NCBI GenBank assembly: GCA_013812505.1
Contig: JACCTH010000043.1
Span: 3,008-67,007 of the forward strand
DNA: 64,000 nucleotides
Source of the DNA: Acidimicrobiia bacterium
Lineage (GTDB): Bacteria > Actinomycetota > Acidimicrobiia > Spongiisociales > ZC4RG35
Reading direction: 5' to 3'
The notes under the pieces are model-generated. The model had not been told where the DNA came from and did not search any database. It saw nothing but the letters and a program-made list of their open reading frames with translations. Both the position numbers and the translations under genes were made by a program. Of the stretch, positions 4,390 through 39,238 are shown one piece after another. Every line of letters begins with the position of its first letter. Position 1 is the stretch's first letter.

Positions 4390-4435
4390 GAGAACCGCTC
4401 GAGGATTGGCTCCTCCCTCGCCGGGGAGTTACTCA

Positions 4436-6289
4436 ATGACCGGGCCACAGAGGTCGAGAATACAGATGAACCCCTACCCGAAAAGGCCAACAGTTCCTGC
4501 CCCGACATCTGACGTAGCCCCCGTGTGGCGCTTCCGGGCTGCCGCGATGAAGCGGTCGGTCGCTTTGGCATGGGTGGTCTTGGTGATTTTGGCCGCACAG
4601 GCCGTCCGCGAAGGGGCCTTCGTCTACCTAGGGCTGTCCCTATCGGTCGTCCTGATGGCGATCGTGCTCATCGCCTCCTCGTTGCTCGATTGGCAGCGAA
4701 TCATGCCAACGAATAGCGGACCATGGGCAACGCTTGCCTGGATCGGAACAATCATTGTGTGCCTGATCGTCATCGGCTCGCCCAAGGAGATGCAAACCCT
4801 CGCCTCCCCCATGTTCTTTGGGCTGGTCGCCCTGAGTGGGCTGGTCCTCGACCGGGTCAAGCATGTCATCGTGAGCGTGCTAGCTGTCGCGGGACTCGGA
4901 TTTCTGTCGTTTCTCGCCGCGACCCAGGTGGCGACGCTGCTCGTCCAGATCTTCTCTGTGGTGGTAGTCGCGACGGCCACTGCCTTGATGGGGTATGAGT
5001 TCGAGCAAGAATCCGTGCGGAGCGCGCGCCGCCTGACCGACCTCCAGCGCCAACGCGCCGACTTCGAGAGGCTCTACGCGGTCTCAACGACCCTCGCCGG
5101 CGCCGATTCTCTTGCAGAAGTCCTCCCCGAGTTAGTCGGGCGTATATGCAACTACCTCAATGCGCAGGTGGGGGTGGTGATGCTTTATGTGCCCGACACC
5201 CACGAGTTGCGTTTGATGAACCCGCTCTGGGTCAGCGGCTACCCGGTCGAAGCCGGCGATTTCACCGTGCCGGTAAGTACCGGTGGGGTGCTGGCCCAGG
5301 TCTTCAAATCGGGAAAGCCCCTCCACCTCGACCGTATTTCTGATCGACCGGACGCATTCGGCATCCTCGGCGAACTGGGTCTAACCGAGGCGATCCTGGC
5401 TCCCTTGCGAGTGGAGCAATTCAAGGTCGGGGTGATCGCGGTGGGCGATCCTGCTGCCGGCACTTTCGGCGAGGAACAGGCCGAAGCGCTCTCCTCGCTC
5501 GGCGCCCCGGCGGCGTTGGTCCTTAGCCAGCTGGGCAGATACGAGGCGGTGGCCGAGATGACGAGACGGCTCGAGGAAGTGGCGCAGATGAAGACCGACT
5601 TCGTCTCCGTGGTCAGCCACGAGTTGCGCACACCGTTGACCTCGATCATCGGATCGCTCGACACCGTTGCTCGGCCGGAGCTAGCACCCGGGTCCGAAGC
5701 GGCGAGGAACCTGCTCAGCACGGCGCGGCGTCAGGCCGGGCGCCTGCAGCGACTGATCGAAGACCTTCTCATCGTCAGCCGCCTAGAGAGGAATGCGGTC
5801 CCGATTCAACTCGAGAAGGTCGTGCTGGAAACTTTCTTGGCGGACGTTGTTGGCGCGCTGCAAATTGCACAGGTCCAGATCGATGTCGAGCCCGCCGACC
5901 TAACTGTGCTATCCGACCCCGATCACCTCGATCGCATCTTTCTCAACCTGCTCGAGAACGCAGTGAAGTACGCGCCCGACAGCCCGGTTGAGGTGAAGGC
6001 AATCGCCTTGGCTAATCGGGTGGAAGTGTCTGTGATCGATCATGGATTTGGCATCCCGGCCGGCCAACGCGAACGGATCTTTCATCGCTTCACCCAGCTC
6101 GAAGGCTCGGCGACCCGCACCCGCGGAGGCACCGGTCTGGGCCTGAACATCGTCAAAGGGTTGGCGGAAGCGATGAAAGGCGGAGTCGAAATGCGCGACA
6201 CCTCCGGCGGCGGCGCCACCTTCGTGGTGACCTTGCCTCGCACCGCGCCGGTGCCTCTGGCCGCGGCGGCGAACTACTCGAGCTACTAG
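4436..6289 (+). CDS. Membrane sensor histidine kinase with GAF domain
   Basis: H-box SHELRTPLTSI, N-box LLENAVKYAP, G-boxes DHGFGIP and GTGLGLNIV. Multi-TM N-terminal half, GAF-like middle. The ORF-track start 4280 overlaps the divergent hydrolase, so I use ATG 4436. ATG 4466 or 4547 are also possible. Confidence 0.85.
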   Translation: MTGPQRSRIQMNPYPKRPTVPAPTSDVAPVWRFRAAAMKRSVALAWVVLVILAAQAVREGAFVYLGLSLSVVLMAIVLIASSLLDWQRIMPTNSGPWATLAWIGTIIVCLIVIGSPKEMQTLASPMFFGLVALSGLVLDRVKHVIVSVLAVAGLGFLSFLAATQVATLLVQIFSVVVVATATALMGYEFEQESVRSARRLTDLQRQRADFERLYAVSTTLAGADSLAEVLPELVGRICNYLNAQVGVVMLYVPDTHELRLMNPLWVSGYPVEAGDFTVPVSTGGVLAQVFKSGKPLHLDRISDRPDAFGILGELGLTEAILAPLRVEQFKVGVIAVGDPAAGTFGEEQAEALSSLGAPAALVLSQLGRYEAVAEMTRRLEEVAQMKTDFVSVVSHELRTPLTSIIGSLDTVARPELAPGSEAARNLLSTARRQAGRLQRLIEDLLIVSRLERNAVPIQLEKVVLETFLADVVGALQIAQVQIDVEPADLTVLSDPDHLDRIFLNLLENAVKYAPDSPVEVKAIALANRVEVSVIDHGFGIPAGQRERIFHRFTQLEGSATRTRGGTGLGLNIVKGLAEAMKGGVEMRDTSGGGATFVVTLPRTAPVPLAAAANYSSY

Positions 6290-15452: not shown

Positions 15453-18400
15453 ACCCGGTCCCGGTCCCCGAACAACTGGCGGTCGTCGAATATCCATTGG
15501 CTCCGCTGCGAGTCGCCGCCGGCGCCGGGACTGGCAAGACCGCCACGATCGCAATGCGAATCGTTCGGCTCGTCACCGAGCTCGGGATCGAACCTGAATC
15601 GATTCTCAGCATCACTTTCACCAACAAGGCAGCCGCCGAGCTCGCCGACCGCATCCGGGCCGCGTTGGGAACGCGAGTTGAGGGCGGACGAGAAATCGAG
15701 GTTCATACCTATCACGGCTTTGCCCATCAGATCTTGCGGGAATATGGAGCGCTGGTTGGAGTCGAGCGGGCCACCCAAGTCATCACCCCGACGTTCTCCC
15801 GCCAGCTCATCGAGGTCGTGATGGCCGGAGTCGATCTGCCTTCGCTCAATCCCGCCAACCGCGCGAATGTCGACGACATCCGCTCGCTCGGCTCTGCCCT
15901 CGGCGACAATCTGCTCGTGCCGGACGACATCGCGGTGCCGGACCCCGCTCCGCACAAGGCGTGGGAAAGCCGCACGTCGCTGTTGAAGGCGCTGCGCGCC
16001 TATCAACATGAGAAGACTCGCCGCGGGGTCGTCGACTATGCCGACCTGATCCTCGCCGCGCACCGGCTGGTCGAGAGCTATCCGGAGGTCGCCGGTGAGA
16101 TTCGATCTCGGTACCAGGCGGTCATGCTCGACGAGTACCAGGACACCAACCCTGCCCAGCGGGAGCTATTGCGCAAGCTTTTCGGGAACGGATTCCCAAT
16201 CACCGCCGTCGGCGACGTCGATCAGACGATCTACGAATGGCGCGGGGCATCGTCACACAACTTCATCCACTTCCCCAGCCACTTTCGAACGACCGCGGGC
16301 GAGGAGGCGGCGAGCCTGCCCTTGACCCTCAACCGTCGCTCCCTGCCCGTGGTGGTCGAAGTCGCCAACGCTGTTCGGTCCCGGACCGGGTCTGAGCAGC
16401 AACTGCTCCGCCCCCTCGATGCCAACATCGGCGGCGAGGTTGCGGTGTCGTGGCACGCGGACGCGGTTCTCGAGGCACAAGAAATCGCCCGCAAGATCGA
16501 GGAGCTTTCCACCCAATATCAGTGGAAACAGATGGCGGTCCTGTTCCGGAAGAACAAGGACATGACCCTCGTCCATGACGCGTTGCGAGCCGCCGGGATT
16601 CCGGTCGAGGTGGCCAACTTGGGAGGCCTCCTGGCCGTGCCCGAGGTTGCCGATCTTCACGCCTGGCTGCGCCTGCTCCATGACCCCGAAGACACGCCGG
16701 CACTGTTCCGAATCCTGTTCGGCGCCCGCTACCGATTGGGCATGGGCGACCTGGTGCACCTGACCCGGTGGGCCAAGGCCCAGAACCGTTCCCAGATCGC
16801 CGATGAGGACGTCGAGCTCCCGCTCAACACTCTCCTCGAAGCCACCGACCACGTCGATGAGTTGGCCGATCTACGATCGCCGGCCCGGGCCGCGCTCGGC
16901 ACCTTCCGCGAGGAGTACCGGCGGTTGCTCGTCGACGCCCAGGGAGTCTCGTTGGTGGAGCTTTGCCGGCGAGTCCTCGACGCCACGGGTGCCTGGAATG
17001 ACCTCGCGGCGATGCCAGCTTCGTCACAGCTCAGCGCTCGCCTCAATCTCTACCGCTTCCTCGATCTGGCCGAAGATTGGAGCCCTTTGGAAGGGGCGCC
17101 ATCGCTTCAGGCATTTCTCTCTCATCTCGGGGCAATGGCCGAAGAGAAAGCAGAGGAGCTCGACACGGCGCGGCTGTCGGGCGAGGACGCGGTCACGCTC
17201 GTCACGGTCCATCGGGCAAAAGGCCTCGAGTGGGATGTCGTGTTTCTCCCGGCGGTCTACCAGAAGAACTTTCCCGCCGGCTCGATGGGTTTTGACAATC
17301 CCTTCACCAAGGGCCGAGTCTTGCCCTACGAGTACCGGCTCGATCGGGAGTGGCTCCCGGCCATCGACTCCCAGTTGTCCGATGACGAGAACAACGACCT
17401 CCTCCGAGAACAGCACGAACGGCAGGAATGGAGGATTGCGTACGTGGCAACCACCCGCGCCAAGGAGCGATTATTCGTCTCCGGGGCCTCCTGGTATGGG
17501 CGCACTGAGACCAACCGGAGACCGTCGCTACCGAGTGAGCTTTGGGAGGTCATCGCCAACCACCCCGCCACCAGAGTTGACTCGCGTCCACCTCCGCGTC
17601 ATCCGCCGCAGCCGACCGTGCTTCGCTTCGAGCACGAAGGTCCGGCGCCAGATCCGTTGTTCGCGGACGGCTGGGAAGCCGCCGTGAGGGCCGAGATCGA
17701 AAGTCCGGGAACTGCCGAAGAAACGGCTGTGGACCACGAGCTGTTCGGCGTGCGCAAACAAGAGTTCCAACAAATGCTCTTCGACCTGCCCGCACCGCTC
17801 GACCCGCTGGCCGAAGAGACCCCAACCTCCTCGGTCACCGGGTTGGTCACATTTGCCTCCTGCCCGCTGCGTTATCACTGGAGCGAGGTCGATCGCCTCC
17901 CGCGCATCTCGTCGGCCGCGGCTCGGCGTGGATCACTCGTCCATCGGGCGATCGAGCTCCACAACCGCGGCCAGGTGCCGCTCGAGGACTTGGAGACTTC
18001 AGACACCGACCCTCTCGATGCGTACGAGGGAACGTCGAGCTGGAACGGATTCCAAAAGAGCCGATTCGCAGAGGTTGCCCCGGCGATGATCGAGCAGCCG
18101 TTCCAAATGCGTTGGGACGGCCTCGATATCCGCGGTCGCATCGACGCGATTTACGGAGATGACGATTGGGAGATTGTCGACTTCAAGACCGGATCGGAAA
18201 GCCCTGATCCGGCGGTGCGAGCGGCGAGTCTCGTCCAGCTCCAAGCGTATGCCATCGCCGCTTCTGAGGGGCACCTCGGACGGCATCCAACCGGAACCAT
18301 CGCGGTCACGTTTGCTTATCTCGGAGCGAACGGAAGCGAAGTCACCTATCAAGCCGACGGCGAATGGCTGGCGGCGGCGCTCGAGCGAATCGACGAGATC

Positions 18401-27601: not shown

Positions 27602-30334
27602 ATGACGGTCAACGATCCGGGCGAGGTCGCCCGCACCCTGCCGGACGACTTTCTCCATCAGCTTTACGATCCCGACCCCGAAGAGACCAAGGAGTGGCTC
27701 GAGTCGCTTGACGCGGTCAACAGTGCTCATGGTCCCGGCCGGGCGCGCTTTCTCTTGTCAAAGCTGATCGAACGCGCCCATTCGGTCAACATCGGGCTTC
27801 CCCCGGTCATCACCACCCCTTACATCAACTCGATCCCCGCCGAGGAAGAACCCGAGTATCCCGGCGACGCCGACCTCGAACGACGGATCAGGCGGTTCAT
27901 CCGTTGGAACGCAGCGGTGATGGTGATCAAGGCCAACCACCGTGAGAAAGGGATCGGCGGGCATCTCTCGACCTTTGCCTCCTCGGCCACGCTCTACGAG
28001 GTGGGTTTCAACCATTTCTTCCGGGGCAAGGCGGGAGAAAACCCCGGCGACCACGTCTACTTCCAAGGCCACGCCGCCACCGGCGTCTACGCCCGCGCTT
28101 TTCTCGAAGGTCGCATCGAAGAGAAGCACCTCGATAACTTCCGTTTCGAGATCAACGGTGATGGCCTCTCGTCCTACCCCCACCCGCGCCTCATGCCTGA
28201 GTTCTGGGAGTACCCGACGGTGTCGATGGGCCTCGGTCCGATCAACTCGATCTATCACGCCCGCTTCAATCGTTATCTCCACAACCGCGGTCTTGACGAC
28301 ACCTCCGAGTCAAACGTTTGGTGCTTCCTCGGTGACGGAGAATGCGACGAGCCGGAAACGCTCGGCTCGATCTCGCTCGCCAGTCGGGAAAAGCTCGACA
28401 ATCTGATTTGGGTCATCAACTGCAACTTGCAGCGCCTCGATGGACCTGTGCGCGGCAACGGGAAGATCATCCAGGAACTCGAATCGGTCTTTCGCGGCGC
28501 CGGTTGGAATGTCATCAAGGTTGTGTGGGGCAGCGGCTGGGATCCATTGCTTGAGGCGGACCATGAGGGCGCACTCGTCCAGGTGATGAACGACACCGTC
28601 GACGGCGAGTACCAACGATATAAAGTGGAGAACGGCGCGTTCGTCCGCGAGCAGTTCTTCGGCAAGGACCCGCGGGCACTGGCGTTGGTTGAGGATATGA
28701 CCGACGACGAGGTCTGGGCACTTAGGCGCGGTGGCCTCGACTACAAGAAGGTCTACTCGGCATACAAGCTGGCGACCGAGCTCACCGGCGCGCCGACGGT
28801 GATCCTCGCCAAGACCATCAAAGGGTGGACCCTCGGTCCAGATGTCGAAGGCCGCAACGCCACCCATCAGATCAAAGAGCTGACCAACGCCCAGCTCCGC
28901 GAATTGCGGGAGCGGCTGTCGCTGCAGAACGATGTTTCGGAAGAGTCGCTCGCCGGCGACAAAGAGCCCTCCTACCTCCGCTTCGCCGAAGGCTCGCCAG
29001 AGCTCGAATACCTGCTCCAGCGCCGCAAGGTCCTCCATGGATATCTCCCCAGCCGTGAAATCGAAACGAGGACTCCGCTGCCGCTCCCCCCGCCAGAATC
29101 GTTCGCCGAGATCTACTCCGGTTCGGGAAAGGTCGAAGCCTCCACCACCACCGCGTTCACCCGCCTGATCCGCAACCTTGCCCGCACCGAGGGCTTCGGG
29201 CCGCGGTTGGTGCCGATCGTCCCCGACGAGGCTCGCACCTTCGGGATGGACTCGCTGTTCCGAGAGCTCAAGATCTACGCCAGCCAGGGGCAGCTCTATG
29301 AACCGGTCGACGCCAAGCTGCTCTTGTCCTACGCCGAATCCCAAGGCGGGCAGATTCTCGAGGAAGGGATCACCGAAGCCGGCTCAATCGCCTCGTGGAT
29401 TGCGGCCGGCACCTCATATGCGGTGAGGGGCGTGCCGATGGTGCCCTTCTTCATCTTCTATTCGATGTTCGGGTTCCAACGGATCGGGGACCTCGCCTGG
29501 CTGGCTGGCGATGCTCGTGCGAAAGGTTTCCTGCTCGGGGCGACTGCTGGGCGGACCACACTCGCCGGCGAAGGCCTCCAACACCAGGACGGGCACAGCC
29601 TGATCCTCTCGGCCACCAACCCGGCCTGCGTGAGCTATGACCCCGCCTTCGCATACGAGGTCGGCACGATCATCGAGCACGGCATCCACCGAATGTACGG
29701 GGAGAATCCCGAAGACGTTTTCTTCTATCTCACCCTCTACAACGAGAACTATTCGCAGCCGCCGCGCCCGGAAGGGGTATCCGAGGGGATCGTCGATGGG
29801 CTCTACCGATTCAGTGCTGCCCCCGCCGGGATGGATCATCGGGCCACGATTCTCTTCTCCGGCACCGGCAACCTGGCCGCCCGCCGGGCGCAGGTCGAGC
29901 TCGCCGATCACTACGGAGTCGGCGCCGAACTGTGGTCGGTCACTTCCTATCAACAACTGCGGGACGAGGCCAACAGCGCCGAGCGTTGGAATCGGCTTCA
30001 TCCATCCGAGCAACCGCGGGTTCCCTTCGTCACATCGATCCTGGAAACCACCGAGGGTCCGATAGTGGCGGTGACCGACTTCATGAAACTGGTACCCGAC
30101 CAAGTCGGCCGGTTCGTCCCGCGCCGCTTTGTGATTCTCGGCACCGACGGCTTTGGTCGCTCCGACGGCCGGGCTGCCCTTCGCCACCATTTCGAGACCG
30201 ACCTCGGCCATGTGGTGCTCGCGGTGCTGTCGGCGCTAACCATGGACGGGCAGATTGACCAATCGGCGGTCAAGGACGCCATCGACCGCTACGGCATCGA
30301 CCCCGACGCCACCGATCCGCGCTTGTTGACCTAG
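27602..30334 (+). CDS. aceE: Pyruvate dehydrogenase E1 component, homodimeric type
   Basis: 910 aa. The N-terminus DPDPEETKEWLESLD, the GGHLSTFASSATLYEVGFNHFFRG motif and the overall length are typical of AceE. Confidence 0.93.
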   Translation: MTVNDPGEVARTLPDDFLHQLYDPDPEETKEWLESLDAVNSAHGPGRARFLLSKLIERAHSVNIGLPPVITTPYINSIPAEEEPEYPGDADLERRIRRFIRWNAAVMVIKANHREKGIGGHLSTFASSATLYEVGFNHFFRGKAGENPGDHVYFQGHAATGVYARAFLEGRIEEKHLDNFRFEINGDGLSSYPHPRLMPEFWEYPTVSMGLGPINSIYHARFNRYLHNRGLDDTSESNVWCFLGDGECDEPETLGSISLASREKLDNLIWVINCNLQRLDGPVRGNGKIIQELESVFRGAGWNVIKVVWGSGWDPLLEADHEGALVQVMNDTVDGEYQRYKVENGAFVREQFFGKDPRALALVEDMTDDEVWALRRGGLDYKKVYSAYKLATELTGAPTVILAKTIKGWTLGPDVEGRNATHQIKELTNAQLRELRERLSLQNDVSEESLAGDKEPSYLRFAEGSPELEYLLQRRKVLHGYLPSREIETRTPLPLPPPESFAEIYSGSGKVEASTTTAFTRLIRNLARTEGFGPRLVPIVPDEARTFGMDSLFRELKIYASQGQLYEPVDAKLLLSYAESQGGQILEEGITEAGSIASWIAAGTSYAVRGVPMVPFFIFYSMFGFQRIGDLAWLAGDARAKGFLLGATAGRTTLAGEGLQHQDGHSLILSATNPACVSYDPAFAYEVGTIIEHGIHRMYGENPEDVFFYLTLYNENYSQPPRPEGVSEGIVDGLYRFSAAPAGMDHRATILFSGTGNLAARRAQVELADHYGVGAELWSVTSYQQLRDEANSAERWNRLHPSEQPRVPFVTSILETTEGPIVAVTDFMKLVPDQVGRFVPRRFVILGTDGFGRSDGRAALRHHFETDLGHVVLAVLSALTMDGQIDQSAVKDAIDRYGIDPDATDPRLLT

Positions 30335-30357
30335 TTTCTCCCCCCGAAGGGGAGAGA
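30335..30357 (+). terminator. Hairpin directly after the aceE stop; member of the poly-C/poly-G hairpin family
   Basis: tttctcccc-CCGAA-ggggagaga: 9 bp including one G-U. Starts 1 nt after TAG. No U-tract. Confidence 0.45.
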
Positions 30358-30398
30358 ACTCGATCGCTCTCCGTCGCGGGCACGCCCGCGTACCGATC

Positions 30399-30680
30399 CG
30401 AAATTTGGAACTACATCCGTGCCGCTGGCGTAATTTGTGACTACATCCGCGTTTTTCCGCTGATCTAGTACCGAATTTGCTGCGGACGACCGATGTGCTG
30501 CCAAATTTCGAACTGTTGCTGCGTGGGTTGCGATCAGCTGAGAGGAACCTCTACACCCGCCTCGATAATTCGGCAGGTAAGGAACGCCTAAACGTTCTTT
30601 GGCGCGAGCGAACCGGCTTCCGACGCGCTGGTGCCGAATTTGCTGAAAAGAGCTCCTCACCTGCCGAATTTTGCCGCGAG
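30399..30680. repeat. Array of degenerate AAATT-box repeats in a 440-bp non-coding gap
   Basis: aatttgGAactacatccg (30402-30419) and aatttgTGactacatccg (30432-30449): 16/18 identity, 30-nt period. Identical 12-mers ccgaatttgctg at 30471-30482 and 30634-30645. ccgaattttgc at 30664-30674 and ccaaatttcg at 30501-30510. Confidence 0.6.
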
Positions 30681-30774
30681 TTGGTCGGAGCACTCACCTG
30701 CTTCTCGCTTCCCCCCAGATCCAAGTAAATCGACGCTTTCCCGGGCGAGAAACAGAAACCTATCGTGCGGGGCT

Positions 30775-32415
30775 GTGGAGAGACTGCCGGTCATCCTCGT
30801 CGTCGACGACGATCCATTGGTGGTGGCCGCGGTAGTGCGCGATCTCGAAGCGAGATACCAGGCGGACTACCAGATCATCGGCGCCGGGTCGGGGGCGGAG
30901 GGACTGGCCACCCTCAACGAACTCTCGGCGCGCGGCTCCCCCACCGCCCTTCTCATCGCTGACCAGCGAATGCCGGAGATGACCGGCGTCCAATTCCTCG
31001 AAGCAGCCCGCCGGTTAGATGAATCTGCCCGGCGGGTGTTGTTGACCGCCTACGCCGACACCGAAGCTGCAATTGCCGCCGTCAACCTCGCCGGGGCGAG
31101 CCACTACCTCCTCAAACCGTGGGAGCCACCGGAAGTTCGGCTCTATCCGGCTTTGGACGACGACCTCAGCACTTGGCGCGCCGGCTACCGGCCCGGATTC
31201 TCAGGGATTCGCGTCCTGGGCGATCGCTTTGCCGCTTCTACACATGAGATAAAGGACTTTCTTGCGCGCAACCAGGTTCCCTATCAAGCGATCGATGCGG
31301 GTGGGTTCGAGGGAAGCGCCTTGCTCGCAGCGATCCGTGTCGAGGCGTCTGATTTGCCTGTCGTGCTCTTCGAAGATCGTGAGCCTCTGATGAGTCCCAG
31401 TTTGGAAGCACTCGCCCACGCGGTCGCCCTCAAGACGCGGCCAGAGCTCGACACTTACGACCTCGTAATCGTCGGCGCCGGCCCGGCGGGACTGGCGGCA
31501 GCGGTCTATGCCGCCTCTGAAGGTCTTGACGTGATCGCGGTGGAACGGCAGGCCGCGGGCGGCCAGGCCGGTGAAAGCTCGCGGATCGAGAATTACCTCG
31601 GTTTTCCGGCCGGGTTGACCGGCGCCGAGCTGACGCGGCGGGCGGTGGCGCAGGCGGCCCGTTTCGAAGCAGAGATGGTGATACCGGTCGAAGCCGTCTC
31701 GATAACTCGCAACGATCCATTTCGGGTCGTGACCTTTGCCGACGGGACTCAGGCCAACGCTCGTTCGGTGATCATTGCGACCGGGGTCAGCTATCGGACC
31801 CTGCCCGCCGACGGTGCTGACAAGTTCGCCGGTCGTGGCATCTTCTACGGTGCCTCCCCGGTGGAAGCATTGGAGCACAAGGGCGAGACCGTCGCCGTCA
31901 TTGGCTCGGGGAACTCGGCCGGACAAGCTGCCATCTACCTCGCCGGCTACGCCGACAAGGTGGTGATTGTAATTCGGGGAGAGTCGCTCGCAGGGTCAAT
32001 GTCGTCCTACCTGATCGATCGCATCGAAGCTTCCAACATCGACGTTGTCACCCGTGCCACCGTGCAAGAAGTCAATGGCGAGCAACGGGTCGAGTCTCTT
32101 GCGCTGGCCGGGCCTGATGGCACGAGGACCTTGCCGATCTCGGCCGCTTTTGTCTTCATCGGTCAGGCGCCTCGCACCGATTGGCTGGCCAGCCAGCTCC
32201 AACGCGACGAGCAGGGCTTCATCCTCACCGGACGTGAATGCCAGCCCGAACCGGGATGGTCGGCCGACCGCAATCCCTTCCTGCTCGAAACCAGCCTGGC
32301 TGGGGTTTTCGCCGCCGGAGACGTCCGCTCTGGTTCGATCAAACGCATCGCCAGCGCCGCGGGCGAGGGAGCGATGGCGGTCAGCCTGGTCCATCAACAC
32401 TTAGCCAAGCTGTGA
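30775..32415 (+). CDS. Fused response-regulator receiver / thioredoxin-reductase-like flavoprotein (no CxxC)
   Basis: Receiver ILVVDDDP...LLIADQRMPEMTG...LLKPW. FAD site DLVIVGAGPAGLAAAVYAASEG, second dinucleotide site VAVIGSGNSAGQAA, GVFAAGDV. GTG 30775 chosen. Only one Cys in 546 aa. Confidence 0.82.
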   Translation: MERLPVILVVDDDPLVVAAVVRDLEARYQADYQIIGAGSGAEGLATLNELSARGSPTALLIADQRMPEMTGVQFLEAARRLDESARRVLLTAYADTEAAIAAVNLAGASHYLLKPWEPPEVRLYPALDDDLSTWRAGYRPGFSGIRVLGDRFAASTHEIKDFLARNQVPYQAIDAGGFEGSALLAAIRVEASDLPVVLFEDREPLMSPSLEALAHAVALKTRPELDTYDLVIVGAGPAGLAAAVYAASEGLDVIAVERQAAGGQAGESSRIENYLGFPAGLTGAELTRRAVAQAARFEAEMVIPVEAVSITRNDPFRVVTFADGTQANARSVIIATGVSYRTLPADGADKFAGRGIFYGASPVEALEHKGETVAVIGSGNSAGQAAIYLAGYADKVVIVIRGESLAGSMSSYLIDRIEASNIDVVTRATVQEVNGEQRVESLALAGPDGTRTLPISAAFVFIGQAPRTDWLASQLQRDEQGFILTGRECQPEPGWSADRNPFLLETSLAGVFAAGDVRSGSIKRIASAAGEGAMAVSLVHQHLAKL

Positions 32416-33674
32416 ACGCAACCGACATTCTCACCCAGGTCCCATACTTCGCGGCTCTGCCCGCACAGGAGATCGAACGGCTGGGAAGCATCTGCAACAT
32501 CGTCGACACCCCCCAAGGGACGGTGGTGATCGAAGAAGGGGCCGCGCCGGGCGATCTGTTCGTAGTCCTGGAGGGGACGTTTCGAGCTGCTCGCAAGGGT
32601 GCGAGCGGCGACCTGGTGTTGGGAACGTCAAGCGTCGGAGAGGTGATCGGGGAGATGTCGCTGCTCGAAGGGCGGCCAACGTCGGCGCAAGTTGTCGCCC
32701 AAACCCCCGGCAAGCTCCTGCGAATCCCGGGCACTGAGATCGAAACCCTCATGGCCTCCCCGGAGGTATCAATGCGAATGCTCCGCACTGTGACCACCCG
32801 ACTGCGAGAGCGCGAAACCGCCCTTGTGCAAGCGGAGAAGTTGGCTGCTTTGGGAACCATGACCGCCGGACTTCTGCACGAGGTCAACAATCCGGCGGCG
32901 GCGCTGATCAATGCCGGATCCCGCCTTGAGGAGGCAGTCGGTCGACTGGTCCCGTCTGCTGGCGCGGTCACCCTAAGCCCGCTCCAGCGATCCGATCGAG
33001 TTCGCGCTCTCGCCAGGCTGCTCGCCTCCTCGGGAGTCGACTCCAAACTCGCCGGCTCGCTCGTTGCCCAGGGGTGGGACGAGGAGAAGCTCGGGGCGAC
33101 TCCGGAGGCCGAGCGTCAAAAGGTCGCGGAGCTCGCCCAGATCCGCCAGCTGACGAGCGAAATGGTGCTGGCGGCAACGCGCCTATCAGATCTCGTGGGG
33201 ACCGTGAAGCGGTGGACTTTCCACGACCAGGGCGAGCGCAATGATGTTGACTTGGTCACAGTCGTCCTGGACAGTCTCACCTTGCTTCGCCACAAGTCGA
33301 GCTCGTTGCGGGTCTCCACGAAACTTCCAGATACTTTGACGGTCGAAGCGCAGGGCGGCGAGCTGAGCCAGGTGGTGACCAACCTCATCGACAATGCGAT
33401 CGACGCTGCGTCGCAGGAGATCGCCATCGAGCTCGTCGAAAACTCCGGGGAAGCGACCCTGGTCGTCGAAGACGACGGCCCTGGCATTCCGTCCGAAAAA
33501 GCAAACAAGATTTGGGAGCCATTCTTCACCACCAAAGCACCCGGAAAGGGAAGCGGTCTCGGGTTGGCAATCAGCCAAAGGATCGTGAACGATCACGGCG
33601 GGTCGCTCACCCTCGACTCCCAACCGGGCCGAACTCGCTTCGTCCTGCGGCTCCGCAAGAAGCTCGCCCCGTGA
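32412..33674 (+). CDS. Cyclic-nucleotide-binding domain histidine kinase
   Basis: cNMP domain ([12 protein letters not shown]...[21 protein letters not shown]). H-box LLHEVNNP. HATPase [28 protein letters not shown] overlap with the upstream stop. Confidence 0.82.
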
Positions 33675-36256
33675 CCTCTCTGCCCACGGGTGTCGTCACC
33701 TTCGTCTTCACCGACATCGAGGGGTCGACACGGCTGCTCAATGAGCTGGCATCTGGCTACAAGGACCTCGTCGAGAGACACAGCGACATCATCAAGTCGG
33801 CGGTCGAAAAGGCTGGGGGTCTTGTGGTGTCAACGGAAGGGGACTCGTTCTTCCTCGTTTTCACCTCGCCAACCGACGCCATACGGGCGATTGGCCAGTT
33901 TCAAAACGATCTGGCCGCCGAACCCTGGAGCAACGACCGGAAGGTGGCAGTACGCGTCGGGGTCCACACCGGAGAAGGGGCCCTCGGGGGCGAGAACTAC
34001 TGGGGAGTCGACGTGCACCGCGCCGCCCGGATCGCCGCCTCCGGTCATGGCGGCCAGGTTCTTCTCTCCGGCGTCACCGCTGCCCTCGCGGCGCCGCACG
34101 TGCCGCCGATGTTCGCGCTGAGGAGCCTGGGCATACATCGATTTAAGGACTTGGCCGAAGGCGAAGAGGTCTACCAACTACTCATCGAAGGGTTGCCCGC
34201 TGAATTCGGACCGCTCACGTCACTGCCGAGAACAAATCACAACCTTCCCGTCCAGTTGACCTCATTCGTCCACCGGGCCGAGCTGGTTCAGGTCGGAGAG
34301 CTCCTCTCTTCCTCGCGCTTGGTGACGCTCACCGGTCCTGGTGGCACCGGCAAAACTCGACTCGCCATCCAGGCCGGCGCCGAGGAGATCGATCGACATC
34401 GCGACGGCGTCTGGTTCGTTCCGCTTGCCGCCATCACCGACCACGAGCTGGTGACTTCAGCCGTAGCCTCGGTCCTCTCGCTGCAACTCCCCGAACGTCT
34501 GCCTGACGAGCGGCTGGGCGAGCTGCTCAACCGAAAGCAGATGCTCCTGATTCTCGACAACTTCGAGCAGGTCTTGAAGGCCGCGGAAAGCGTCGCCACC
34601 TGGCTGCACCACGCTCACGACCTGAAAATCCTCGTGACTTCGCGCTCCCCTTTGCACATCTCCGGAGAACGCGAATTCGCCGTCCCGGCGCTCGACTTAG
34701 ACAGTGAAGCCGTGGCGCTTTTCGTCGAGCGAGCGCAAGCGGCACGGCCCGGATTCATCATCGATGAGGACAATGCCTCCACCATTGCCCGAATTGTGGC
34801 CCGGCTCGATGGGCTGCCATTAGCGATCGAGCTCGCCGCCGCCCGTCTCCGGATCTTTTCGCTGGAAGCTATGTCCGAACGGCTCGGCTCCCGTCTCGGA
34901 CTTTTGACCGGCGGTGCTCGCGACCTTCCGGAACGCCAGCGGACGCTCCGGAAAGCGATCGAGTGGAGCTTCGACCTGCTTGAGCCCGAAAGCCAAAACC
35001 TTTTCACCCAGGCCGGCGTTTTCACCGGAGGACTCGCCTTGGAAGAAGCCGAGTTCGTGCTGGGGTCCAGCTACCCGCATGATCTCTTAGAGGGGCTCGA
35101 AGCCCTGGTCGATCAAAGCTTGCTGCGGCCGATTGTCGACGCGTCGACGCCTCGTTTCTTGATGTTGGAAACGATTCGGGAGTTGGCGGCTGAGCAGCTG
35201 GAGCCGCACCCCTCCTCCGACAAGATACGAGCCCGGCATGCGGAGGCGTATCTGAGCTTGGCGGAAAGAGCGGCGCCCCACCTCACCCAAGACGACCAGC
35301 GCTGGTGGCTCGACCGGATCAGCGAGGATCACGAGAATATGCGGGCAGCGTTGTCATTCTCGATCGCCGACGAAGATGCCGAGACGGCGCAGAGAATGTG
35401 TGGTGCGCTTTGGCGGTTCTGGCAGATGCGTGGCTTTCTCAGCGAAGGAAGAGTCCGGACCGATTCTGCGCTGGCTTTGGCGGGAGGCACGCCGCGCAGC
35501 CGGCTCCGGGCACTGGAAGCAGCGGGCGGGTTGGCCTACTGGCAGGCAGATGGTCCGGCCGCACACCGCTATTACGAAGAACAGGTGAGTGTTGCTCGCC
35601 AGCTCGGCGACAGACGAGAGCTGGCCTACGCCCTTTACAACCGTTCCTCAGCTGGCTGGCCCGAAACTGGCCTCGCGTTGGATCAGCTCGACGAAGCTGT
35701 GAAAATTGCCGAAGAGGTGGGCGACGCCACCTTGTTGGGAACCGTCTATTGGGGATTGGGGAGCATTCATTTCCTTGGCACCGGGTCCGACCACCCCCAA
35801 CGCACCGAGCACTTGGCGAAGGCGATCGACGCCCTCACCCGTGCCGAGGCCTTCCTGGCAGAGACAGGCTCAAGCTTTCAGATCGGGTGGACCGACAACA
35901 TGCTCGCGTTCTGCCTGCTAAACGACAATCGGCCGCATGAGGCGATTCTCCACCTGCGCGCCGGGCTGAAGCGTTTTGTCGCCGCCGGCGATCTTTCGGC
36001 CCTCCCCCTCCAGATCGCTTCGTACGCTGAGTACGTGCTCCAATTGGGGAATGTGGATTTGGGCGTCAAGCTGGCGGGAGCGAGTGAAGCTTTCCAGCGG
36101 CGCAGCGAGACGAGACTGCTCGACATCTCGGTCAACGAGGTTAGCGGAGCCCGGCAAGCCATTAGTGATCTCCGGCCAGCTCGGTCTGCGGCGTTGCTCG
36201 CCGAGGGGGCGGCGCTGACGGTCGACCAAACCCTCGAGATCGTCGACAAGCTCTGA
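33671..36256 (+). CDS. Class III adenylate/guanylate cyclase fused to STAND/AAA ATPase and TPR-like C-terminal region
   Basis: VTFVFTDIEGSTRL...EGDSFFLVF...VRVGVHTGE...GVDVHRAARI. P-loop LTGPGGTGKTRLA. Long helical-repeat C-terminus. GTGA overlap with the upstream stop. No LuxR HTH seen. Confidence 0.82.
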   Translation: MTSLPTGVVTFVFTDIEGSTRLLNELASGYKDLVERHSDIIKSAVEKAGGLVVSTEGDSFFLVFTSPTDAIRAIGQFQNDLAAEPWSNDRKVAVRVGVHTGEGALGGENYWGVDVHRAARIAASGHGGQVLLSGVTAALAAPHVPPMFALRSLGIHRFKDLAEGEEVYQLLIEGLPAEFGPLTSLPRTNHNLPVQLTSFVHRAELVQVGELLSSSRLVTLTGPGGTGKTRLAIQAGAEEIDRHRDGVWFVPLAAITDHELVTSAVASVLSLQLPERLPDERLGELLNRKQMLLILDNFEQVLKAAESVATWLHHAHDLKILVTSRSPLHISGEREFAVPALDLDSEAVALFVERAQAARPGFIIDEDNASTIARIVARLDGLPLAIELAAARLRIFSLEAMSERLGSRLGLLTGGARDLPERQRTLRKAIEWSFDLLEPESQNLFTQAGVFTGGLALEEAEFVLGSSYPHDLLEGLEALVDQSLLRPIVDASTPRFLMLETIRELAAEQLEPHPSSDKIRARHAEAYLSLAERAAPHLTQDDQRWWLDRISEDHENMRAALSFSIADEDAETAQRMCGALWRFWQMRGFLSEGRVRTDSALALAGGTPRSRLRALEAAGGLAYWQADGPAAHRYYEEQVSVARQLGDRRELAYALYNRSSAGWPETGLALDQLDEAVKIAEEVGDATLLGTVYWGLGSIHFLGTGSDHPQRTEHLAKAIDALTRAEAFLAETGSSFQIGWTDNMLAFCLLNDNRPHEAILHLRAGLKRFVAAGDLSALPLQIASYAEYVLQLGNVDLGVKLAGASEAFQRRSETRLLDISVNEVSGARQAISDLRPARSAALLAEGAALTVDQTLEIVDKL

Positions 36257-36299
36257 CTTGGGCTTTTTAGCCACTCAAGGCGCCTAGAGTTTCTCTGGG

Positions 36300-37832
36300 A
36301 TGATGGTTGGCGTGGGCTCGGAGAGGTGGGCTGCCCGCCCCAAGCGGGTGTGGTTTCTACGCGTCCTGTCGGTCCTGCTTCCCCTCGCCGCCGCCTATAC
36401 AGCCGCCAGCGTGGTCGGGGCCCTCTTGCCGGCGCCAACAGGGTGGTGGTGGTTGGCGGTCGCCGTCGCCGGCGTTCTGGCAGCTTGGGTGAGCCTTCCC
36501 TGGAGTAGTCGCCTACAGCTCCTGGCAATGACTTATGAGATCGAGCTTCTCTTTCCCGATCGGGCGCCGGAGCGTGTCGAGGTCGTCAGGCTGGTGGGAC
36601 GACCCGAGTTGTTGCGTTCGCCTCCGGGACAAACTTCCAACGCAGCGGCCTTCGTCATGGCGATGGTCCTGTCACTCCGGCGGAATCACTCCCGAAACAA
36701 TCGCCATCCCTACCGCGTCGCGGCCTTGACCGAACTCATCGGCCGCCAGCTCGATCTCAATGAGGCGGAGCTGGACCGCCTCCGTTGGGCGGCCATAAGT
36801 TATGAGATCGGCAAGCTCGCTCTCCCTCCCGAGCTGGCGACCCCGGAGCTGAGCCTCGAGCAGTCCGAGCTTCTTTCGACCTTTCCGACCACAGGAACCC
36901 GAATGCTCGGAGCTCTTACCGAATGGCTTGGCCCTTCGACGAGAGCGGTCGCTCATCACACTGAGAACTGGGACGGGTCCGGCCACCCCTACGGGCTGAA
37001 GGGTGAGGAGATTCCACTAGCGGCGCGAGTGGTCACGGTGGCGGTGACTTTCGACCATCTCGTCAATGGTGCGCTCGACTACCACGCGGCACGGCGACAG
37101 ATCGCGGGCGGAGCCGCCTCGGACTTCGACCCCGAGGTCGTTCGCGCTCTACTGAGCGTTGACGAAGCCGAGCTGCGGTCCGTCGCCGGGCTCTCGGCGC
37201 CGCTTCGACAGCTGGCCGCCCTGCGGCCGGGCCCGGTGGGTGCCCTCGTTGCCACCTTTTTCTTGATCACAGGGATGGCCCTGACCGGATCGCTGCTCCC
37301 CCGGGCCGCCTATTCGGTTCGCGTCGATGAGCTGCTGTCCTTTCTCGAAACGACCTCGACGAGCGCATCGATTTCTGCACAGGCGACAACAACACCGCTG
37401 CTCGCGTCGACCACTGAAGGCAACGATCCATCGACCACCTCGGCGACGTCGATCGGTGGATTGCCGAGCTCAACCACTGGAAGCTCTGCACCTGGGACGA
37501 CGGTTCCTGCCTCGGAAATCAGGCGGCCAGGGGCCACCACTTCCACCACCCGGCCGGGCTCCACGACCTCCACCGCCTCGACCACGTCGATCCCCGGCGT
37601 GACGACCACGGCCGGAGCCACGACCACAGCGCCAACCACCACGACCACCCGCCCGCCGGTTACGACGACGACCCAGGCGCCGACCACGACCCAAGCACCA
37701 ACGACGACCACCACCCTCGAGCCAACCACCACGACCCTCGAGCCGACCACCACCACCCTCGAGCCAACCACCACCACCCTCGAGCCAACCACCACCACCC
37801 TCGAGCCAACCACGACAACAGAGGTCCCCTAA
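36300..37832 (+). CDS. Membrane HD-GYP-like domain protein (degenerate metal ligands) with Thr-rich repetitive C-terminal tail
   Basis: HPYRVAAL...ISYEIGKLALP...HHTENWDGSGHPYGL...VTFDHL aligns to the HD-GYP layout, but HD is replaced by YE and HHE by HHT. TM segments at the N-terminus and before a ~170-aa T/P/S tail. Confidence 0.75.
   Translation: MMVGVGSERWAARPKRVWFLRVLSVLLPLAAAYTAASVVGALLPAPTGWWWLAVAVAGVLAAWVSLPWSSRLQLLAMTYEIELLFPDRAPERVEVVRLVGRPELLRSPPGQTSNAAAFVMAMVLSLRRNHSRNNRHPYRVAALTELIGRQLDLNEAELDRLRWAAISYEIGKLALPPELATPELSLEQSELLSTFPTTGTRMLGALTEWLGPSTRAVAHHTENWDGSGHPYGLKGEEIPLAARVVTVAVTFDHLVNGALDYHAARRQIAGGAASDFDPEVVRALLSVDEAELRSVAGLSAPLRQLAALRPGPVGALVATFFLITGMALTGSLLPRAAYSVRVDELLSFLETTSTSASISAQATTTPLLASTTEGNDPSTTSATSIGGLPSSTTGSSAPGTTVPASEIRRPGATTSTTRPGSTTSTASTTSIPGVTTTAGATTTAPTTTTTRPPVTTTTQAPTTTQAPTTTTTLEPTTTTLEPTTTTLEPTTTTLEPTTTTLEPTTTTEVP
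37716..37820 (+). repeat. Five tandem copies of a 21-bp unit ctcgagccaaccaccaccacc (encodes LEPTTTT)
   Basis: Units start at 37716, 37737, 37758, 37779 and 37800; near-identical; each contains CTCGAG. Confidence 0.9.
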
Positions 37833-37840
37833 CTGGGCGC

Positions 37841-38617
37841 GTGACCTGCGATCATCGGCCCATGCGCGCCGAGGATGTTCACGACTTCATCTCCTTCCGC
37901 GATCCTGACGAGAACCGCACCTGGCTCTTCGATGCGACCTTCCTTCGTTCGTCGTGGCTGTGCATCTTTGGACGAGGTTGCCAGGGGATCTACACGACGC
38001 CAACGCCCGAGCTCTCCCAGGGATGCTGTTCGATGGGAGCGTGGTTCACCGACGAAGAAGATGTGGCCAAAGTCGAACGCCATGCCGCGCTGCTTACCGA
38101 CGACAACTGGCAGTTTCGCAAGAAGGCGGGGACGAAGATCTGGCGACAGCGAGGCGATGACCAGACATCGCGGCTCGTCGACGATGCGTGCATCTTTCTC
38201 AATCGTCCGGATTTCAAACGCGGCGCGGGCTGTGCACTCCACCTCGGCGCTCTTGACGCCGGAGAACGGCCTCTCGAATGGAAACCGAATGTCTGCTGGC
38301 AACTACCCCTGCGGCTCGAAGAGGACACCGACGGTCATGGCCACATCACCTCCGTGCTTCGTGAATGGAAGCGGCGGGACTGGGGTGACGGCGGCGCTGA
38401 GTTTGCGTGGTGGTGCACCGACAGCCCCCTGGCCTTTGTCGGTGGCGAGCCGGTCTACGAAAGTCTGAAGGACGAGATCATCGAAATGATCGGCAACAAG
38501 GCCTATGCGCTCTTGGTCGAGCAGTTGAACCGGCCCCAGCCACTTCCCCACCCGGCTCTGCGAAAAAAGGACAAGGCCCGCCGCTCACGAATCCCGGTGA
38601 CGCCGGTCCAAGGCTGA
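37841..38617 (+). CDS. Conserved-looking cysteine-rich hypothetical protein
   Basis: 258 aa. Cys motifs CIFGRGCQG, GCCSMGAW, DACIFLN, GCALH and CWQLP. Basic C-terminal tail. Start is GTG 37841 or ATG 37862. Confidence 0.6.
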   Translation: MTCDHRPMRAEDVHDFISFRDPDENRTWLFDATFLRSSWLCIFGRGCQGIYTTPTPELSQGCCSMGAWFTDEEDVAKVERHAALLTDDNWQFRKKAGTKIWRQRGDDQTSRLVDDACIFLNRPDFKRGAGCALHLGALDAGERPLEWKPNVCWQLPLRLEEDTDGHGHITSVLREWKRRDWGDGGAEFAWWCTDSPLAFVGGEPVYESLKDEIIEMIGNKAYALLVEQLNRPQPLPHPALRKKDKARRSRIPVTPVQG

Positions 38618-38629
38618 CGTTCCTCCCCC

Positions 38630-38680
38630 GTTTTCGCGACTAAATCGGTACCTCAGACGGACCGATTCGGTAGCGAAAAC
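38630..38680. terminator. Bidirectional hairpin filling the gap between convergent genes
   Basis: gttttcgc..aatcggt-loop-accgatt..gcgaaaac: 8-bp outer and 7-bp inner stems with an internal loop. Confidence 0.45.
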
Positions 38681-38683
38681 GCA

Positions 38684-39238
38684 TCAGGGCTGCTTGCGAA
38701 ACAGGCCCTTTACCCAGGAGACAAGGCTTGTCAAGAAGAGCCGAAAGGGTTTGACATCAGCCGCCTTTATCTCCGAGGCCGCCGCCTCGGAGGGGGCTGC
38801 CATCTTGGCTTCGAGGCAGCCGGCAAAGTCGGTGATGAGCCGGCGGCTCATCTCATTGATCAGACCGGTGCGACCGAACTGGGCGGCGGGGCCTGCAAGG
38901 GTGATGTCGGCATCGATCTTGACGTTGGTGCCTGAGCCAGCGGCGGTGAGGAAGTAGTTCACCTTGACCTGTCCGCGGCTTCCACCCCGTTTGTCGACTC
39001 CTTTGCCGTCGATAAGAGCGGTGCGGTTGGCGGGGTCAGAGGTGACGTTGGCTTCGCCCTCGAAAGTTGCCGCGATCGGGCCGAGCTTCACTGAGATGTT
39101 GCCGGCGTACACCCCTCCGCCTTTGTCCTCGGTGAGGGTCGCACCCGGCAGGCACTCGGCGACGGCAGGAACGTCTTGAAACTGCTCCCAGACCGCCTCG
39201 ACCGGCCGATCGACAGTGAACTCCTGGGTGATCTTCAT
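38684..39238 (-). CDS. coxG: SRPBCC-fold CoxG-like protein
   Basis: MKITQEFTVDRPVEAVWEQFQDVPAVAECLPGA...GNISVKLGPIAATFEGEA is the CoxG pattern. ATG 39238 chosen. Confidence 0.78.
   Translation of the reverse strand: MKITQEFTVDRPVEAVWEQFQDVPAVAECLPGATLTEDKGGGVYAGNISVKLGPIAATFEGEANVTSDPANRTALIDGKGVDKRGGSRGQVKVNYFLTAAGSGTNVKIDADITLAGPAAQFGRTGLINEMSRRLITDFAGCLEAKMAAPSEAAASEIKAADVKPFRLFLTSLVSWVKGLFRKQP

Follow-up and report, generated by a model that had tools for sequence, protein, structure and literature searches.

The 64,000-nucleotide stretch of Acidimicrobiia bacterium DNA analyzed here (contig JACCTH010000043.1 of assembly GCA_013812505.1, positions 3,008 to 67,007; hereafter, the window) carries an operon of four genes, here called A to D, that is a real, so far uncharacterized variant of two-component signaling with an enzymatic redox output. 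The universal unit of this operon is the pair A and B, a deeply conserved two-gene module that encodes a response regulator with a flavoprotein output and a soluble histidine kinase with a cyclic nucleotide-binding (CNB) sensor. Gene C, which encodes a nucleotidyl cyclase combined with a STAND NTPase, was added to this module only in one Actinomycetota/Acidimicrobiia-like clade, where it is constant; gene D, which encodes a degenerate membrane HD-GYP-like protein, is probably a lineage-specific local neighbor and not a core component. To our knowledge, nearly all two-component systems that are understood end in gene regulation, chemotaxis or c-di-GMP turnover; unlike these, the A-B system seems to have a flavin redox enzyme as its end point.

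The original prediction, made from the sequence alone, read the four genes as a self-contained cyclic-nucleotide signaling cassette. Its description of the gene layout holds in all respects. The genes are co-directional; the stop codon of A and the GTG start of B share the tetranucleotide GTGA (32412-32415), as do the stop codon of B and the GTG start of C (33671-33674), and a 43-bp gap separates the stop codon of C from the ATG of D (36300). The start codons of A, B and C fit the lengths of their orthologs (546, 420 and 863 amino acids, respectively), and every domain call of that prediction is recovered with Pfam. The three genes of the translationally coupled block and their domains are as follows (positions in the window).

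30775-32415, forward strand: gene A, response regulator with a flavoenzyme output, 546 amino acids (Pfam, AlphaFold2 (AF2) model, 546-residue orthologs)
30787-31140, forward strand: receiver (REC) domain of A, residues 5-122, with the phospho-acceptor Asp63 at 30961-30963
31201-31425, forward strand: middle domain of A, residues 143-217, with the beta-alpha-beta-alpha-beta-beta-alpha thioredoxin/glutaredoxin (Trx/Grx) fold in the AF2 model
31450-32409, forward strand: flavoprotein module of A resembling thioredoxin reductase (TrxR), residues 226-545, with the FAD motif GAGPAG at residue 234 and GSGNSAG at residue 377
32412-33674, forward strand: gene B, soluble histidine kinase, 420 amino acids (Pfam, AF2 model, 420-residue orthologs)
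32418-32756, forward strand: CNB beta-barrel sensor of B, residues 3-115, with the phosphate-binding cassette at 32649-32699
32760-33659, forward strand: transmitter of B, starting with a long helix (residues 117-179) that bears the H-box His156 (32877-32879, 'LLHEVNNP')
33671-36256, forward strand: gene C, class III nucleotidyl cyclase, STAND (NB-ARC) NTPase and helical C-terminus resembling tetratricopeptide repeats (TPR), 861 amino acids (Pfam, orthologs)
33683-34240, forward strand: cyclase domain of C, residues 5-190
34310-36253, forward strand: STAND part of C, with NB-ARC (residues 214-433) followed by a winged helix and a helical-repeat sensor arm

The receiver-flavoprotein and its kinase

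By its sequence and predicted structure, A is a flavoprotein on the TrxR/AhpF scaffold in which a cysteine-less Grx fold is joined to a cysteine-less TrxR fold. Pfam detects Response_reg (E 1.5e-16) and Pyr_redox_2 (E 1.9e-37), and the AF2 model (mean predicted local distance difference test (pLDDT) score 88.3) consists of REC (residues 1-122), the Trx/Grx fold (143-217) and a two-Rossmann module (226-545). The REC domain carries the response-regulator signature: D11, D12, D63, T91 and K114 are invariant among 61 homologs, and the model shows the (beta-alpha)5 pattern. The two-Rossmann FAD/NAD(P)H fold is confirmed by the Pyr_redox_2 match, by both GxGxxG/A motifs and by TM-scores of up to 0.92. 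The best Foldseek matches are AhpF, aligned over ~550-580 columns that include its N-terminal Trx folds, and TrxRs in the flavin-reducing (FR) state, with which the highest TM-scores were obtained; the best sequence match in the PDB is the TrxR 7jyp (E 7.7e-39). The domain content of A thus bears out the prediction of an FAD/NAD(P)H-type flavoprotein in place of a DNA-binding output. Homologs are abundant (at least 8000 clusters among the matches listed in a search with A), and full-length REC-TrxR-like proteins from Cyanobacteria, Chloroflexota and a metagenome-assembled genome (MAG) labeled as alphaproteobacterial are still 52-55% identical.

Both redox centers that would be expected in such a protein are lost. 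In the alignment to 7jyp, 'YGASPVEA' (residue 358) of A replaces the CxxC center and lies opposite 'YCAA-CDG', and the middle domain has 'RFA/RWS' at the expected CxxC position. The Grx affinity of the middle domain is seen in a sub-threshold Glutaredoxin match of the Leptolyngbya homolog (E 3.6e-4), and PF00462 is listed for the homolog P0081. The sole cysteine of A, C489, is not conserved, and no cysteine is conserved among the 61 homologs. With neither center in place, A cannot perform dithiol-disulfide chemistry. A function as thioredoxin-disulfide reductase was considered and ruled out, given the missing CxxC and scores below the curated TrxR cutoffs (227.9 bits against 343.45 for the NCBIfam model TIGR01292; a score of 134 against a cutoff of 644 for PRK10262). 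Of the original view of A as a receiver joined to a TrxR-like flavoprotein, the receiver and the fold therefore stand, whereas a disulfide-reductase role does not, and the name 'thioredoxin reductase (NADPH)' that JGI assigns to A homologs is wrong in substance.

Gene B matches cNMP_binding (E 2.5e-16) and HATPase_c (E 9.2e-25), and the Pfam HisKA model finds no match in it. All the boxes of a histidine kinase are recognizable (HEVNNP at residue 156; NLIDNA, the N box, at 324; DDGPGI, G1, at 354; FFTTK, F, at 371; GSGLGL, G2, at 380), and H156, N324, N328 and G380/382/384 are invariant among 63 homologs, which is the signature of this enzyme family. The AF2 model (pLDDT 84.1) contains the CNB beta-barrel (residues 1-113), the second helix of the dimerization and histidine phosphotransfer (DHp) domain and a complete catalytic and ATP-binding (CA) domain; a single helix (residues 117-179) serves both as the C-helix of the CNB domain and as the DHp helix bearing His156. 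The barrel strands in the model and the invariant G80 and E81 of the cassette identify the CNB fold. Because B has no membrane segment and no other sensor, the barrel is its only input, as originally proposed, and one continuous helix connects this input to His156. Another feature of B, unusual among histidine kinases, is a three-helix insert of ~40 residues at the tip of the DHp hairpin (residues 190-228; 32979-33095) with a nearly invariant 'LVAxGW' motif (G221, W222), which may be a docking surface. A partial copy of B that is 100% identical (P0123) was deposited as 'MAG: Actinomycetota bacterium', and the name Acidimicrobiia is attached to relatives at 46-57% identity.

A scan for A homologs with one genome per species places the kinase-flavoprotein pair in at least 600 species-level genomes from most major soil and aquatic phyla (at least 8 phyla), and cultivable carriers of the pair include Streptomyces, Amycolatopsis, Chitinophaga, Hymenobacter and Nostoc. 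The best 80 loci, which were examined individually (loci are cited below by L numbers), come from Acidobacteriota, Bacteroidota, Cyanobacteria, Chloroflexota, Actinomycetota, Gemmatimonadota, Planctomycetota and other phyla; besides the genera just named, they include Dyadobacter, Chryseobacterium and Cellulosimicrobium. A histidine kinase of ~460-500 amino acids is encoded on the same strand within 600 bp of the A homolog in 69 of these 80 loci, downstream in 50 and upstream in 19. Among the 11 exceptions, five have little or no sequence downstream of A before the end of the contig or locus, four have a nearby kinase that falls outside this definition (behind a zf-UBP gene, farther away downstream, in divergent orientation or divided between two open reading frames (ORFs)), and only two lack any kinase. 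Kinases with Pfam-annotated cNMP_binding and HATPase_c domains adjoin A in Leptolyngbya (three tandem copies), L002, L003, L004 and L005. All-against-all clustering of the neighbors of A-B revealed no third universally conserved gene. We are therefore confident that A and B form a cognate two-component pair.

Independent support for a functional link between the CNB sensor and the flavoenzyme comes from the sequence of a fusion protein. In L083, one ORF (929-3316, reverse strand) encodes cNMP_binding, a Grx-like fold and a cysteine-less TrxR-like module in a single protein; over the module common to both, about half of its residues are identical to those of A (an estimate from the alignment). 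The existence of this fusion suggests that the flavoenzyme output can be controlled by a CNB domain either directly or via a kinase-receiver relay.

Two kinds of additional genes were noticed near the pair. In 20 of the 80 species loci, from several phyla, the REC-TrxR/kinase pair is flanked by a small zf-UBP zinc-finger protein of ~90-110 amino acids; loci with this protein are L003, L004, L009, L022-L024, L027, L031, L032, L035, L038, L047, L052, L053, L058, L063, L070, L074, L078, L080, L086 and L088, and also L176. In three clusters (P0210, P0223 and P0227), the CNB kinase itself bears zf-UBP as an N-terminal fusion. The zf-UBP protein may be a third component or a partner of the flavoenzyme; none is encoded in the window, where ORFs of at least 70 amino acids were searched. 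Six loci of Acidobacteriota or Bacteroidota (L022, L024, L035, L047, L074 and L078) contain ergothioneine-type genes, namely EgtB-like (FGE-sulfatase and DinB_2) and EgtD-like (Methyltransf_33) ones, ~1-3 kb from the A homolog; in five of the loci they are upstream of it, and in L024 they lie on the far side of the upstream kinase. This neighborhood hints at a thiol- or thione-related role of the flavoenzyme.

The cyclase-STAND gene

Pfam identifies Guanylate_cyc (E 4.5e-12) and NB-ARC (E 9.7e-10; also AAA_22) in C, followed by a long helical C-terminus. The NB-ARC core is intact, with the Walker A motif GPGGTGKT at residue 222 (Lys228) and the Walker B-like 'LLILDNFE' at residue 292. HTH_77 and TPR_12 are detected in orthologs of C, TPR_12 faintly, and the TPR signal of the window protein is weak. 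Thus the cyclase, the P-loop STAND ATPase and the helical arm of the original prediction are all present, whereas the TPR-like character of the arm is only faintly discernible.

The closest solved structures of the cyclase domain are Ma1120 (PDB 4wp3; E 7.8e-18) and Rv1900c/LipJ (E 1.5e-13). In the alignment to Ma1120, the metal-binding Asp15 (FTDIEGS) and Asp58 (EGDSF) and Arg120 are retained, and all three are invariant in seven orthologs and paralogs of C at 36-54% identity. The other active-site positions differ: Ser54, Asn109 and His116 of C lie opposite K101, D157 and A164 of Ma1120, so that the substrate Lys, the substrate Asp and the transition-state Asn are all changed. The roles of these Ma1120 residues and of R168 have been described, and Ma1120 itself is active as an adenylyl cyclase although its Asn site is occupied by Ala; restoration of Asn abolishes or drastically lowers its activity (PMC4215837). 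The missing Asn of C is therefore no indication of inactivity. Moreover, Ser, Asn and His are conserved in the orthologs of C at 49-54% identity, a pattern that speaks against decay and for a working enzyme whose specificity is undefined. Judging from these alignments, the cyclase of C is plausibly active; of the catalytic residues that the original prediction counted on, the two metal-binding Asp and the Arg are kept, whereas the remaining three positions are non-canonical. In the 86% identical relative L002 (12702-15483), separate ORFs that overlap in different frames (12702-14012 and 13408-15483) encode the cyclase and the STAND part, which reflects either a real frameshift or a long-read assembly error; the cyclase motifs are intact.

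Across the wide survey, C is found near A-B in only four of 86 loci (the window, L002, L003 and L023), and a hidden Markov model (HMM) built from four cyclase domains finds no cyclase at any other of 88 A-B loci. L072, considered as a further case, was rejected because its neighbor is a BTAD/SARP-type STAND protein without a cyclase. The cyclase-STAND adjacencies in L003 and L023 are independent cases. Within the clade of the window, the picture is different: L089/L090 (90% kinase identity) as well as L091/L092, L093 and L094 (46-47%) all have A, B and C in this order and joined by 4-bp overlaps, and orthologs of C (863-898 amino acids) directly follow B in L089-L095. The triad occupies two unrelated contexts, between aceE and DUF3109 in the window lineage and between NIF3-CT398-RNaseH-YdjM-luciferase-like and DUF3090-His_Phos-SRAP genes in the sister lineages, and was thus moved or retained as a unit. 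The recurrence of gene order and overlaps at 46-90% identity indicates that the arrangement is more than chance. The proposed translationally coupled, co-conserved triad is accordingly real within its own clade, whereas only A-B is universal. In one Acidimicrobiia MAG (GCA_035281425.1; L095, 6315-10887), B and C occur in their usual setting but the REC-flavoprotein gene is missing altogether, with no more than a 36-bp gap, showing that the link between B and C can persist without A at that locus.

These data bear on the possibility that the genes are unrelated neighbors, A being a plain thioredoxin reductase and B and C signaling proteins with no connection to it. The JGI name of the A homologs and the TrxR as the best PDB sequence match are what such an account would lead one to expect, and the cyclase-STAND family is large, with most members not beside A-B. 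However, A lacks CxxC and scores below the NCBIfam TrxR cutoff, the 4-bp overlaps and gene order are conserved in both genomic contexts, A adjoins the kinase in 69 of 80 species, and a CNB-flavoenzyme fusion exists. The neighborhood data largely refute this account, which we consider extremely improbable.

A reciprocal survey, in which metagenome contigs were scanned with an alignment of C and the best 80 paralogs were examined, confirmed that C belongs to a large paralogous family mostly not located beside A-B. In at least 10 of these 80 loci, stand-alone cNMP_binding genes immediately precede the paralog, in co-directional or divergent orientation, such that the pairing of this cyclase family with a CNB reader is recurrent. 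The paralog loci with one or two such genes (~140-150 amino acids) are L098, L099, L102, L103, L107, L108, L114, L117, L154 and L173. In L159, a C paralog has a different neighbor, a type 2A encapsulin shell protein with a CNB domain (SrpI-like; 3875-5524, reverse strand).

The proposed circuit and the kinase pocket

From the gene structure, domains, catalytic residues, co-conservation and fusions described above, we infer a signaling path in which the STAND-gated cyclase would be a dedicated, translationally coupled input recruited to A-B in the Acidimicrobiia-like clade. The helical/TPR-like arm of C would sense a ligand. Class III cyclases build their active sites at the dimer interface, and nucleotide-dependent oligomerization of NB-ARC would bring the cyclase domains of C together; the resulting dimers would make a cyclic nucleotide of uncertain identity. 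This nucleotide would bind the CNB barrel of B and, via the predicted continuous helix, alter autophosphorylation at His156. The phosphoryl group would pass from His156 to Asp63 of A, a step to which the gene linkage points, and would switch a non-disulfide, NAD(P)H-dependent redox activity, most likely because the REC and Grx-like domains change position with respect to the flavin module. That C feeds B is likely; for the whole chain from cyclase through CNB kinase to flavoenzyme, our estimate is just short of an even chance. If this path holds, the window clade supplies A-B with a likely signal source in the same translational unit, which the other lineages lack, so that three purified proteins would suffice to test the entire path. 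The questions addressed would be which reaction a cysteine-less TrxR/Grx protein catalyzes, how phosphorylation of a receiver gates a flavoenzyme and whether a CNB domain without the canonical Arg can read a cyclic nucleotide at all.

Several observations weigh against the path as drawn, some of them concerning the pocket of B. Thr90 (32679-32681) takes the place of the canonical Arg with which PKA, CRP and 2pqq bind the cyclic phosphate: in alignments of 'GRPTSA' of B with 'NRPRAATVVA' of the regulatory subunit RI of PKA (protein kinase A) and 'GPRTATGTA' of 2pqq, Thr90 is opposite the Arg. Among the 120 best B homologs, 64, those of the window clade, have Ala, Thr or Gly here (10 of them Thr); the more distant homologs (35-42% identity, for example, from Anaerolineae) account for 51 Arg and a few His or Ala, and mostly keep the pocket motif PR[STN]A. 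No compensating Arg is conserved in the window clade, the Arg two residues before Thr90 included. Outside this clade, most of the family, including the acidobacterial and Bacteroidota kinases, has the pocket motif 'LPFSRM', so that the ligand across the family need not be a cyclic nucleotide. Other parts of the path are affected as well. The substrate pair of C, Ser54/Asn109, is neither of the Lys/Asp (ATP) nor of the Glu/Cys (GTP) type, and the product cannot be read from the sequence; A has no redox cysteine; about 95% of A-B loci lack C; and no cyclic nucleotide monophosphate (cNMP) phosphodiesterase is encoded in the cassette. On the evidence of the pocket sequences, the ligand of the CNB-fold sensor has probably diversified within the kinase family, and an ordinary cNMP as the ligand in the window clade is somewhat doubtful.

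The Arg-less pocket gives rise to the main alternative, under which the operon and the two-component pair stand but the barrel of B senses another molecule, or C contacts B directly, or C makes a non-canonical nucleotide that is matched by a co-adapted pocket. Throughout the ~60 nearest kinase clusters, Thr or Ala stands in place of Arg, with the remainder of the cassette (Gly-Glu ... Ser-Ala-Thr) preserved, and this replacement coincides with a cyclase bearing the unusual Ser/Asn/His. The other neighbor with a His-type cyclase, L023, also lacks the Arg ('TPFVAS'), and in L003, a cyclase with the usual transition-state Asn (and Arg at the substrate-Lys position) is found alongside the canonical pocket 'APRSAS'. 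Furthermore, barrels of the CAP family bind many ligands other than cNMPs, as in FNR, CooA, NtcA and CprK. However, the correlation between pocket and cyclase is anecdotal, with three lineages compared, and the conserved Gly80-Glu81 and Ser91-Ala92 argue that a ribose-phosphate ligand is still bound. Besides, the stand-alone CNB genes beside the closest C paralogs keep the pocket Arg ('PRVAQ' in the co-directional ones that were read), which suggests that the family of C makes ordinary cyclic nucleotides. Weighing both sides, we consider a changed ligand or a direct contact unlikely, albeit the most serious competitor of the cyclic-nucleotide path.

A more speculative version, which we regard as improbable, is that of a private circuit: the Ser/Asn/His STAND cyclase would make a nucleotide that is neither cyclic AMP (cAMP) nor cyclic GMP (cGMP), the co-evolved Arg-less CNB kinase would read it, and the cysteine-less Grx-TrxR flavoenzyme, a new activity present in hundreds of species, would be switched, possibly acting on the small zf-UBP metalloprotein or on an ergothioneine-related substrate.

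The combination of a STAND sensor, a cyclase signal and a CNB effector also raises the possibility of an anti-phage or stress-alarm system of the Pycsar/Avs type. STAND NTPases are common sensors of invaders, pairs of cyclase and CNB-protein genes recur, and PADLOC matches the CNB of B to that of PycTIR (3.9e-13) and, weakly, C to PycC (0.0019). The former match, however, reflects the shared CNB domain only and the latter is marginal, and no PADLOC defense family matches A or D. The triad resides in conserved housekeeping synteny across 46-90% identity and not in variable islands, the output is a phospho-controlled flavoenzyme and not a TIR, membrane or nuclease killer, and the A-B pair occurs in hundreds of species without the cyclase. 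With the PADLOC matches confined to the domain level, defense was rejected as the main explanation and appears very unlikely.

Gene D, the flanks and known systems

Gene D and its recognizable domain are located immediately downstream of the triad.

36300-37832, forward strand: gene D, membrane protein with a degenerate HD-GYP domain and a Thr/Pro-rich tail (HD_5, alignments)
36657-37133, forward strand: HD-GYP-like domain of D, residues 120-278, with Tyr168-Glu169 in place of His-Asp and Gly-His-Pro in place of GYP

The HD_5 match (E 7.9e-26) is at the level of the fold: 'SYEIGK' of D aligns to 'LHDIGK', and 'GSGHP' to 'GTGYP'/'GRGFP', of the solved HD-GYP proteins 5z7c and 4r8z, which are the closest to D in the PDB, and D thus lacks both the His-Asp dyad and the GYP motif of the phosphodiesterases. 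With YE for HD, GHP for GYP and predicted membrane segments, the original description of D as a degenerate membrane HD-GYP-like protein is accurate. The YE pair is kept in the D homologs of L002, L089 and L090, an indication that the degeneracy is maintained and not accidental; GYP is kept only in L002. These three nearest relatives are the only loci with D, which is missing from L091-L095 and from every other A-B locus. Characterized HD-GYP enzymes hydrolyze c-di-GMP or cGAMP, not cAMP or cGMP, so that a cAMP/cGMP loop would stay open even if D were active. The cassette is therefore not self-contained, contrary to the original prediction, D being confined to the nearest relatives, devoid of the HD dyad and a member of a family that acts on other nucleotides. 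The tail of D, which is probably extracytoplasmic, contains a 21-bp tandem repeat (37707-37813; 5.1 copies, 95% matches) within a wider imperfect repeat (37620-37816); it encodes TTTLEPT units, and its copy number differs slightly in L089/L090.

The operon is embedded in housekeeping genes, with an ABC transporter, a radical SAM enzyme, an alpha/beta-hydrolase and aceE upstream and DUF3109/Rv0495c-like, CoxG, XdhC and MoCF genes downstream; this synteny is shared with L002 and L089. An Rfam scan of 30000-38800 at E <= 0.1 detected no RNA elements, and a promoter scan of the locus detected no sigma-70-like promoters. Terminator-like sites occur at chance level, with none between A, B and C and one just within D (36332-36350). 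The 440-bp spacer between aceE and A (30335-30774) contains at least seven copies of the motif (T/C)GCCGAATTT(G), including three pairs with members exactly 30 nt apart (30399/30429, 30469/30499 and 30632/30662), as well as a copy in inverted orientation with 94% complementarity (30567-30583 versus 30654-30670). Elsewhere in the window the motif shows no enrichment, and the corresponding spacer measures 5 bp in the 90% relative L089 and 150 bp in L002. The array may be a set of operators or a small inserted element.

Among known systems, the closest counterpart of A is the 'TrxB' class of response regulators, which has the same REC and Pyr_redox_2 (pyridine nucleotide-disulphide oxidoreductase) architecture and is listed in a census table (PMC9953108). 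In this census, a single Leptolyngbya column contains one TrxB-type regulator and one cNMP_binding kinase, and the other 16 strains have none (PMC9953108); in a different genome, Leptolyngbya FACHB-261 (L001), we find the REC-TrxR gene followed by three cNMP kinases. The class is a catalog entry for which we found no report of a partner kinase, substrate or function. The original statement that the system had not been characterized thus holds as far as function is concerned, our literature search on the REC-TrxR/cNMP-kinase architecture having found the census table and no functional study, whereas the domain architectures themselves had already been cataloged (PMC9953108).

The low-molecular-weight TrxRs and AhpF share with A the two-domain FAD/NAD(P)H fold but, unlike A, have no N-terminal REC, no YGASPVEA in place of CxxC and no cysteine-less Trx/Grx-like fold. 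The L083 fusion resembles A in its Grx-like fold and its cysteine-less site ('YYAA..EA'); unlike in A-B, its sensor is attached directly, with no kinase or receiver relay, and its pocket also lacks the canonical Arg. We take 'cyclic nucleotide-binding domain-containing thioredoxin-disulfide reductase' to be the NCBI name for such fusions.

The counterparts of C are the Mycobacterium tuberculosis proteins of the Rv0386/Rv1358/Rv2488c type, which consist of a class III cyclase, an ATPase, TPR and a LuxR-type helix-turn-helix (HTH); as in C, an N-terminal cyclase precedes a STAND-type NTPase and helical repeats in them. Like C, Ma1120, Rv1900c (N342/H402) and the Rv0386-type cyclases (Gln/Asn in Rv0386) deviate from the canonical residues at substrate or transition-state positions. 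Unlike the Rv0386-type cyclases, C has no C-terminal DNA-binding domain, carries Ser54/Asn109/His116 and is translationally coupled to a CNB kinase. Pycsar resembles the operon in that a dedicated cyclase is encoded beside a CNB-domain reader, and the CNB of B is similar to that of PycTIR. The operon differs from Pycsar in its marginal cyclase match, in the kinase that feeds a flavoenzyme in place of a TIR or transmembrane (TM) effector and in its housekeeping synteny; neither a PycC-family cyclase nor a CNB-TIR or CNB-membrane effector is present. Degenerate HD-GYP domains are known from the N-terminal regulatory HD-GYP of V-cGAP3 (5z7c) and from the 'YN-GYP' protein PA2572 of Pseudomonas aeruginosa. 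D, which keeps the fold and most metal ligands, differs from these in its membrane anchor, its Thr/Pro-rich tandem-repeat tail, the lack of REC and, in the window, GHP.

Every part of the operon is of a known kind, and censuses already include the REC-TrxB and cNMP-kinase architectures. What appears to be unreported is the conserved pairing of A with B, the output composed of cysteine-less Grx and TrxR folds, the direct CNB fusion as an alternative to the relay and the recruitment, in one clade, of a STAND cyclase alongside a changed pocket.

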